A stretch of DNA of 27,928 bases from a virus (Duplodnaviria > Heunggongvirae > Uroviricota > Caudoviricetes): positions 1 through 27,928 of IMG/VR virus record IMGVR_UViG_638341082_000007, one strand, 5' to 3'. The notes below the pieces were generated by a model. The model had not been told where the DNA came from. It worked only from the letters and a program-made list of their open reading frames with translations, and searched no databases. Below are positions 24,365-24,900 of the stretch, in pieces; the first letter of the stretch is position 1; each line of letters opens with the position of its first letter. The position numbers were made by a program, and so were the translations under genes.

Positions 24365-24388
24365 CAAAACCCGCCGAAGCGGGTTAAG
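24365..24388 (-). terminator. Intrinsic terminator downstream of hok
   Basis: Minus-strand RNA aacccgc-uucg-gcggguu followed by UUGUUUUUU; 7-bp stem with a UUCG tetraloop. Confidence 0.6.
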
Positions 24389-24453
24389 TGCGGGTGCGTT
24401 GAGGATGCCTGACACATCAGCGGTGGCGAGGGATTTCTCCCCCGCCGGGTCTC

Positions 24454-24609
24454 TTACTCCTCAGGTTCGTAAGCTGTGAAGACAGCGACCTCCGTCTGGC
24501 CGGTTCGGATTCGTACCTCGCAGAGGTCTTTCCTCGTTACCAGTGCCGTCACTATGACGGTTAAACAGATGACGATCAGGGCGATTAACATCGCCTTTTG
24601 CTGCTTCAT
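24454..24609 (-). CDS. hokD: Hok/Gef-family membrane toxin (HokD/RelF-like)
   Basis: 51-aa product MKQQKAMLIALIVICLTVIVTALVTRKDLCEVRIRTGQTEVAVFTAYEPEE matches HokD as I recall it; GGAG RBS; an in-frame upstream ATG at 24664-24666 gives a 70-aa mok-like extension. Confidence 0.85.
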   Translation of the reverse strand: MKQQKAMLIALIVICLTVIVTALVTRKDLCEVRIRTGQTEVAVFTAYEPEE

Positions 24610-24900
24610 AGCCTGCTTCTCCTTGCCTTTCGGCACGTAAGAGGCTAACCTACATTTGTGAGACATAGATTGGGCCTCAGATTAATGTTAAGCGTCGTGC
24701 AGGACGCGTAATGTTAACTGGGGCTTTTCTCTATCTGCCTTTTGGTGTTCATGCCTGAGACAGATAGCCTCAAGCACCCGCAGTCATTCTACTTAACTAA
24801 GATTTCCCCGCAAACCGTTTTTATCCCCAGCTGCAAATCGAATACACAACAAGTGCTGCCGCCATTGCAATTCCTGTCGTTGTGAATGCCTCCGGCCAGG

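Follow-up and report, generated by a model that had tools for sequence, protein, structure and literature searches.

A probable complete hok/sok/mok toxin-antitoxin module of the hokW/hokD lineage in a lambda-like Escherichia coli prophage

The stretch of DNA considered here, a caudoviricete record of 27,928 nucleotides (IMG/VR record IMGVR_UViG_638341082_000007, positions 1 to 27,928, hereafter the window), carries on its minus strand a small toxin gene of the hok family that has its own terminator and is not accompanied by relB or relE, and the question raised by this locus is whether such a hok is a regulated toxin or a decayed copy. A sequence-only reading made earlier had described an intact Hok frame of 51 amino acids, an in-frame ATG 19 codons upstream that would provide a mok-like leader, and a UUCG-tetraloop terminator behind the gene, and had left that question standing. 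As judged here, the locus is very probably a type I toxin-antitoxin module of the hok/sok/mok kind, complete in its parts and belonging to the hokW/hokD lineage. By sequence criteria, a regulated copy is favoured over a decayed one, because a Sok promoter and a terminated Sok RNA are predicted, because the 5' and 3' elements tac and fbi pair in the minimum free energy (MFE) fold of the messenger, and because the leader is matched over its full length at 120 bits. The module as such is already known, in that it has a name and a RefSeq annotation (hokD), is common, and is represented by a nearest relative that has been characterised experimentally.

The coding part of the locus is readily recognised. 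The Pfam family HOK_GEF (PF01848) matches residues 25-66 of the 70-residue frame at 81.6 bits (E = 3e-23; cut-off 22), PHROG 251, 'MokW-like host killing', matches the same frame with E = 2.8e-33, and the Hok protein itself is 100% identical to HokD (RelF) of E. coli K-12, the RefSeq name for the identical locus being hokD (WP_000813254.1). A search of the hok locus for signs of decay turned up neither a frameshift nor a stop codon nor an insertion sequence. The upstream ATG (24666) lies 19 codons from the hok ATG (24609) in the same frame and has the Shine-Dalgarno (SD) sequence GAGG 8 nt 5' of it; the mok frame that it opens runs through the hok start with its own SD, as in mokW, mokC and the R1-type locus, and an in-frame mok of 70 codons is the normal state in these loci. 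Downstream of the toxin, the terminator reads AACCCGC-UUCG-GCGGGUU followed by UUGUUUUUU, and it was the sole terminator-like site returned by a terminator scan of 24200-25000. The three features named by the sequence-only reading are consequently all present. It had further stated that relB and relE are missing here, as opposed to the K-12 Qin arrangement, and both parts of the statement hold: tblastn with the RelE and RelB proteins of K-12 gave no match anywhere in the window at E <= 1, and relE and relB do lie upstream of hokD in Qin. As a separate observation on the toxin gene, its Tyr47 codon (24471-24468, minus strand) is UAC followed by G, which makes up the TadA motif UACG; adenosine-to-inosine (A-to-I) editing of hokD mRNA is reported to recode that tyrosine to cysteine, and HokD served as a toxic control in the same study (preprint 10.1101/2025.08.07.668861).

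The leader and the antisense gene bear on whether the copy is regulated or decayed. The Rfam model RF01794 ('sok') is matched in its entirety at 24779-24604 (120.1 bits), and the match falls on the strand of hok itself. Since the model sits on the hok sense strand at every locus tested (in K-12, for example, opposite the annotated sokC), the match is evidence for a hok leader and not for an antisense transcript. The same model scores 118 bits at hokC, 113 bits at hokW and 87 bits at the R1-type locus, and has no match at K-12 Qin. Position 1 of the model places the putative +1 of the hok mRNA at G24779, 7 nt past the -10 box, and mRNA nucleotide n corresponds to window position 24780 - n. Among 13 relatives, the -10 box is TAGAAT or TACAAT in most and the start GGGTGCTTGAGGC is present in all, while the DNA farther upstream is unrelated; a conserved -10 box and start amid unrelated upstream DNA would fit a module that has its own start site. 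The sequence-only reading had expected the hok promoter within 24667-24900, where it is indeed predicted, and had taken that whole interval to be non-coding; the latter part cannot be kept, as the interval takes in the mRNA leader (24779-24667) and a small open reading frame (ORF; 24904-24821) that is described below.

The antisense gene was located by carrying over the coordinates of the annotated sokW of phage 933W through an ungapped alignment. The resulting candidate Sok RNA folds with -29.5 kcal/mol, and a slightly longer piece gives z = -5.0. Its predicted promoter lies inside mok, so that the RNA overlaps the mok initiation region, and it is the sokW promoter of 933W and of the Sakai prophage Sp5 base for base. 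That promoter has been put to the test in Sp5: the primer YO-421 turns the -10 box TAACCT of sokW into GAGCCG ('pro-less'), whereupon antitoxin activity is lost and the construct becomes toxic, and the toxicity is partially rescued by sokW supplied in trans (PMC8621323). In the same work, hokW and sokW RNAs were both detected from the native Sp5 prophage, and the pair was found to be a type I system that depends in part on RNase III and Hfq. After mitomycin C, the sokW RNA vanishes and HokW protein appears, in a RecA-dependent manner (PMC8621323). The sequence-only reading had expected any Sok-like RNA in the region upstream of the mok start; the candidate RNA does reach into it, its promoter does not, and the plus-strand range that had been proposed for a promoter search (24600-24720) proved to be the right one. 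The features of the locus are collected in the table.

Table. Features of the hok/sok/mok locus in the window. Promoters, RNAs and RNA elements are predicted; positions are those of the window.
Feature	Position	Strand	Description
hok promoter (predicted)	24814-24786	minus	-35 TTTGCG (24814-24809), 17-nt spacer, -10 TAGAAT (24791-24786)
mok-hok mRNA, full-length (predicted)	24779-24360	minus	about 420 nt; MFE -167.4 kcal/mol
tac element	24779-24768	minus	GGGUGCUUGAGG; 5' end of mRNA; pairs with fbi in full-length MFE fold
ucb element (mok anti-SD)	24728-24720	minus	AAAAGCCCC; pairs with mok SD region in full-length MFE fold
mok initiation hairpin / Sok target	24678-24641	minus	GAGGC:GCCUC (dcb, 24645-24641); -12.1 kcal/mol folded alone
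mok frame	24666-24454	minus	70 codons, in frame with hok; SD GAGG at 24678-24675
hok toxin ORF	24609-24454	minus	51 codons; start ATG 24609, MKQQKAMLIALIVICLTVIVTALVTRKDLCEVRIRTGQTEVAVFTAYEPEE; SD GGAG at 24622-24619
3' untranslated region (UTR) hairpin	24446-24425	minus	GGCGGGGGA-GAAA-UCCCUCGCC; seen in every fold; pair-preserving changes in relatives
fbi element	24404-24392	minus	CCUCAACGCACCC; complementary to tac save one bulged C
Intrinsic terminator	24385-24359	minus	7-bp stem, UUCG loop, U-run; stem-loop 24385-24368
Sok promoter (predicted)	24623-24651	plus	-35 TTGCCT (24623-24628), 17-nt spacer, -10 TAACCT (24646-24651)
Sok RNA (candidate)	24658-24728	plus	71 nt: 14-nt single-stranded 5' tail, long hairpin, 3' UUUU

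The predicted folds of the messenger agree with this assignment. The full-length fold has z = -6.3 against 100 shuffles, and in it nt 1-12 (24779-24768) are paired with 24392-24404, which is the tac/fbi pairing that the sequence-only reading had suggested looking for; the duplex has -21.5 kcal/mol, compared with -13.9 +/- 2.5 kcal/mol in shuffled 3' UTRs. In the same fold, GCCCCAG of ucb is paired with CUGAGGC, which holds the mok SD, and the hok SD lies within a small hairpin; in the Rfam consensus, the partner of ucb is tac instead. The mok initiation hairpin corresponds to the third helix of the Rfam model, and its loop CUCACAA (24662-24656) holds the YUNR motif CUCA, for which a U-turn role was reportedly described by Franch et al. 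in 1999. The hairpin in the 3' UTR is likely, by analogy, to be the stem that protects the 3' end of the processed mRNA; in R1, the shortened mRNA depends on the equivalent stem to be stable (PMC9841398). When the mRNA was cut at 24420-24424, just past this hairpin, the tac-fbi pairing was gone and a 5' metastable hairpin appeared at 24777-24751 (tac with 24761-24751), of a kind that is known from R1 (PMC9841398). A cut at 24404 had also been tried and was discarded, as it gave a spurious alternative pairing of the 5' and 3' parts; the R1-type locus served as the model for placing the processed end behind the 24446-24425 hairpin. The penalty for imposing the tac-ucb helix is 10.6 kcal/mol for the full-length RNA and 3.0 kcal/mol for the shortened one, so that truncation moves the balance by 7.6 kcal/mol toward the tac-ucb form, which is the expected direction.

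Whether this end-pairing is a general property was examined in a comparative set for which one genome per species was scanned, and which comprises 80 loci from Escherichia, Shigella, Photorhabdus, Kluyvera, Pantoea, Enterobacter, Klebsiella and others. A 5' end could be recognised in approximately 64 distinct loci; in these, the first 13 nt mostly find their best partner at 45-58 nt past the stop codon, and the mean duplex energy, with fbi sites in relatives picked by duplex energy, is -19.9 kcal/mol, again to be set against -13.9 +/- 2.5 kcal/mol for shuffled UTRs. Over these loci, which belong to several genera, tac is nearly invariant, with GC at positions 5-6 and UUGAG at 7-11, while positions 4 and 12 are variable. 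The two elements covary (GGGUGC/GCACCC versus GGGCGC/GCGCCC; GAGG/CCUC versus GAGA/UCUC) with two exceptions, one of which is a wobble pair, and one pair of the 3' hairpin is G-U, G-C or A-U depending on the relative. Compensatory changes of this sort, in tac/fbi and in the 3' hairpin, occur across Escherichia, Photorhabdus, Pantoea and plasmid loci. The K-12 hokC locus, whose 3' end abuts IS186 and whose best fbi candidate is poor (-16.8 kcal/mol), lacks a good tac partner and serves as an internal negative control for the end-pairing; the window locus is without an insertion sequence.

Comparison with named systems places the module more closely. Its nearest characterised relative is hokW-sokW-mokW of phage 933W and Sakai Sp5 (AF125520; PMC8621323), a region annotated in the 933W record as hokW, mokW and 'SokW antisense RNA', with which the window shares approximately 90% DNA identity from promoter to fbi. 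Both have an in-frame mok of 70 codons (90% protein identity over this frame), a Hok of 51 amino acids, a Sok of 71 nt with the same hairpin and an identical promoter, and the same tac, ucb, dcb and fbi. They differ in mok codons 2-4 and the 5' recognition tail of Sok (MSHKC in the window, MLNTC in 933W) and at the C-terminus of Hok (TAYEPEE as opposed to VDYESEK). Directly past fbi the two diverge: the window has the UUCG terminator, which is common to K-12 hokD and most close relatives, whereas 933W hokW is without it. The modules also sit at different places, that of the window between the replication genes and Q and that of 933W near attR. From R1 hok/sok/mok (parB), the paradigm of type I systems, the window locus departs further in sequence while keeping the same architecture and the named RNA elements. 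The R1 mok has 70 amino acids with a GAGG SD (PMC9841398), and the 3' layout of the R1-type plasmid locus, a stable hairpin followed by fbi and then by a terminator hairpin, is like that of the window. The R1 Hok is 43% identical to that of the window, tac/fbi is GGCGC/GCGCC in R1 and GGGUGC/GCACCC in the window, and the R1 system is plasmid-borne, its role in post-segregational killing having been established there. The chromosomal hokC/mokC/sokC (gef), with an in-frame mok, has a Hok region that is approximately 71% identical to that of the window.

A further comparison is that with K-12 Qin, where hokD (relF) is the third gene of relB-relE-hokD and encodes a Hok identical to that of the window. 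Over window positions 24623-24360, that is from the hok SD through the 3' hairpin, fbi and the UUCG terminator, the two are 98.9% identical in DNA, and the same neighbours follow downstream (a rem-like ORF, DUF968/ydfU and Q/ydfT), with 86% identity from 24303 on. Upstream of the hok SD, by contrast, Qin has relE and relB and is without the hok promoter, tac, ucb, the mok start, and Sok with its promoter. The homology stops at 24623, adjoining the -35 box of Sok. The window does not have the relB-relE-hokD operon layout, in that the full leader is present and neither RelB nor RelE finds a match. Judged from these alignments, the Qin hokD looks like a 5'-truncated derivative in which relBE replaces the leader, and the window like the untruncated form.

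A proposed course of events can be assembled by homology to R1 hok/sok and to Sp5 hokW-sokW, the features tested here being those of sequence and fold alone. A weak constitutive promoter would give rise to a stable mok-hok mRNA of approximately 420 nt. In the full-length molecule, tac would pair with fbi and ucb would mask the ribosome-binding site of mok, such that neither translation nor Sok binding could take place. Slow trimming of the 3' end as far as the GGCGGGGGA hairpin would then remove fbi, upon which the 5' end would refold (tac with ucb) and the mok initiation hairpin would become exposed. Meanwhile, the convergent promoter within mok would supply an unstable Sok of 71 nt, whose 5' tail would pair with that hairpin, block the translation of mok and hence the coupled translation of hok, and yield a duplex that would be a target for RNase III. 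Were Sok synthesis to be halted, through loss of the element or induction of the prophage, Sok would decay, the stored mRNA would be translated, and the 51-residue Hok would damage the inner membrane.

Several points weigh against regarding the copy as a regulated module, and they are best considered together. The Hok models of NCBIfam score under their curated cut-offs (48.5 versus 73 bits) and were not used for naming. The -35 box of the hok promoter agrees with the consensus at 3 of 6 positions, as does the -10 box TAACCT of Sok, and a consensus promoter scan of 24200-25000 on both strands listed none; this null is not evidence of absence, because the hexamers of both hok-family promoters score under the threshold of the scan, and the promoter calls rest on conservation and on the sokW mutagenesis instead. 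In the shortened RNA, the open tac-ucb form lies 3 kcal/mol above the MFE fold and is not itself the MFE. The 3' end of the mRNA and its processing site are placed after the R1 model, and transcription, processing and toxicity of the window copy are likewise projected by analogy from relatives. Finally, a passage of the preprint 10.1101/2025.08.07.668861 relates that the chromosomal hokA, hokB and hokC showed no post-segregational killing in older work.

It may be, though we would put it at somewhat under an even chance, that the same module has a role other than prophage stabilisation, either in phage release on induction, as proposed for hokW-sokW, or in abortive infection, as reported for R1 hok/sok against T4. 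Deletion of hokW-sokW from Sp5 halves phage release and delays growth arrest, and the loss of sokW RNA after mitomycin C points in the same direction (PMC8621323). The effects in Sp5 are modest (two-fold), however, and the position of the window copy in its prophage differs from that of hokW; furthermore, this is a question of role and not of identity, and the sequence favours no role over another.

The setting of the locus bears on how it might be expressed. It is located in the early-right region, from replication genes to Q, of a lambda-like E. coli prophage. Copies that are 100% identical occur in at least 10 RefSeq E. coli chromosomes, the closest of which (RefSeq record L002) matches window positions 9302-27928 at 99.7% and has the locus in a lambda-like prophage adjoining yccA. 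The order there is O-like, DnaC-like, DUF1627, DUF4406, a hypothetical gene, hok, rem-like, DUF968, Q, tRNAs, lysis and terminase, all on the hok strand, and the assignment of the antiterminator Q was confirmed by a PHROG search. On the gene strand from the replication genes to Q (22194-27928), the hok terminator is the sole canonical intrinsic terminator, and one might speculate that it also serves in the control of early phage transcription, as a nin-region terminator. Megablast against phages returned 78 matching records, 933W included; some match is present in 4948 of 5426 complete E. coli genomes, and in 1760 of the 5426 a copy covers at least 80% of the query. The hok/sok module is reported to be enriched in prophages (preprint 10.1101/2025.08.07.668861).

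Given this setting, hok could be envisaged as an operon gene after the manner of relBEF, expressed mainly via a long early-right transcript that takes in the replication genes, hok and Q, with its own promoter and the tac/fbi pairing being secondary and the terminator being chiefly the nin-region terminator before Q. We consider this improbable. The 5' end of a read-through RNA would be undefined, and still the -10 box, tac and fbi have been conserved in the face of unrelated upstream DNA, and in 933W/Sp5 the module lies near attR, so that its response to induction is independent there of any nin context. What can be said for it is that the replication genes upstream and DUF968 and Q downstream are all read in the direction of hok, that the stretch from the upstream gene to hok is free of terminator-like sites, that the hok terminator is the only canonical one on its strand in that interval, and that HokW production in Sp5 needs RecA and prophage induction (PMC8621323); the two routes, own promoter and read-through, could in any case coexist. 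Less probable still is a silent relic, conserved in structure yet without expression or killing and persisting by hitch-hiking on the prophage, for while both promoters fall under the consensus-scan threshold and partial copies are found in many E. coli genomes (as counted above), every element is intact, substitutions in relatives spare paired and coding positions or are compensatory, the near-identical hokW-sokW is transcribed from its native prophage with HokW appearing on induction (PMC8621323), the Sok promoter is the same as the functional sokW promoter, and an identical Hok protein is toxic (preprint 10.1101/2025.08.07.668861).

With the regulated hok/sok/mok module retained as the preferred reading, the variation among its close relatives deserves comment. 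Substitutions are concentrated in a hot spot at 24669-24650, where 13 of 20 columns vary among eight close relatives, compared with 0-4 variable columns in the other 20-column bins of the leader and hok coding region (24729-24491). This segment consists of the mok start codon, codons 2-6, the hairpin loop and the 5' tail of Sok, and six of the eight differences between Sok and SokW fall within the first 21 nt. The hot-spot alleles MSHKC, MLCTC and MLNTC differ between copies that share one genome, as in E. coli CP178302 and S. flexneri CP182556. Such diversity would fit selection for Sok/hok pairs that do not cross-react. A more elaborate idea, which we regard as unlikely on balance and put forward tentatively, would join this to the terminator: 24669-24650 would be a specificity patch under diversifying selection that prevents cross-regulation, and the hok terminator would be the pre-Q terminator, such that antiterminated early transcription on induction would collide with the Sok promoter, shut Sok off and thereby time the release of Hok.

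A number of neighbouring features were recorded in passing. The small ORF upstream of the hok promoter has 27 codons (MTWPEAFTTTGIAMAAALVVYSICSWG; 24904-24821, minus strand), is without annotation in the L002 and 933W records, and has the look of a short hydrophobic peptide. Its start codon shares bases with the stop codon of the gene upstream (ATGA), and its end falls 7 nt short of the hok -35 box. Versions of it with amino-acid changes and no frameshift are conserved in 933W (L001 2762-2842), in L006 and L007 (600-680) and in L014, and a search of PHROG with it gave no match. In some relatives an extra ORF of 393 bp separates the rem-like gene from the hok terminator (E. coli CREC-U1, L086 939-1331; similar matches in H43-H50, H1 and H2); its label in RefSeq is 'hypothetical', and the phage records H1 and H2 call it a 'mobile element protein'. 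The two-piece matches of such relatives had been considered as insertions into hok, a reading that was ruled out, as the extra ORF sits downstream of the terminator. Rfam marks three tRNA genes downstream of Q (19928-20174 and 21327-21398, minus strand), which are named tRNA-Arg, tRNA-Ile and tRNA-Gly in the near-identical RefSeq record and resemble the tRNA cluster of Stx-type lambdoid phages. Outside the window, 933W has a match to the Rfam family sRNA-Xcc1 (RF02221) near its attR end (L001 447-535, 69 bits).

Roughly one in three complete E. coli genomes has the module in near full length, and its value as a discovery is accordingly small. Its value lies in providing a clean reference for the K-12 Qin hokD locus, one in which the leader, mok and Sok are still present, and in the natural allele series of the Sok-recognition segment, which is usable for the study of cross-talk between prophage copies of hok/sok.

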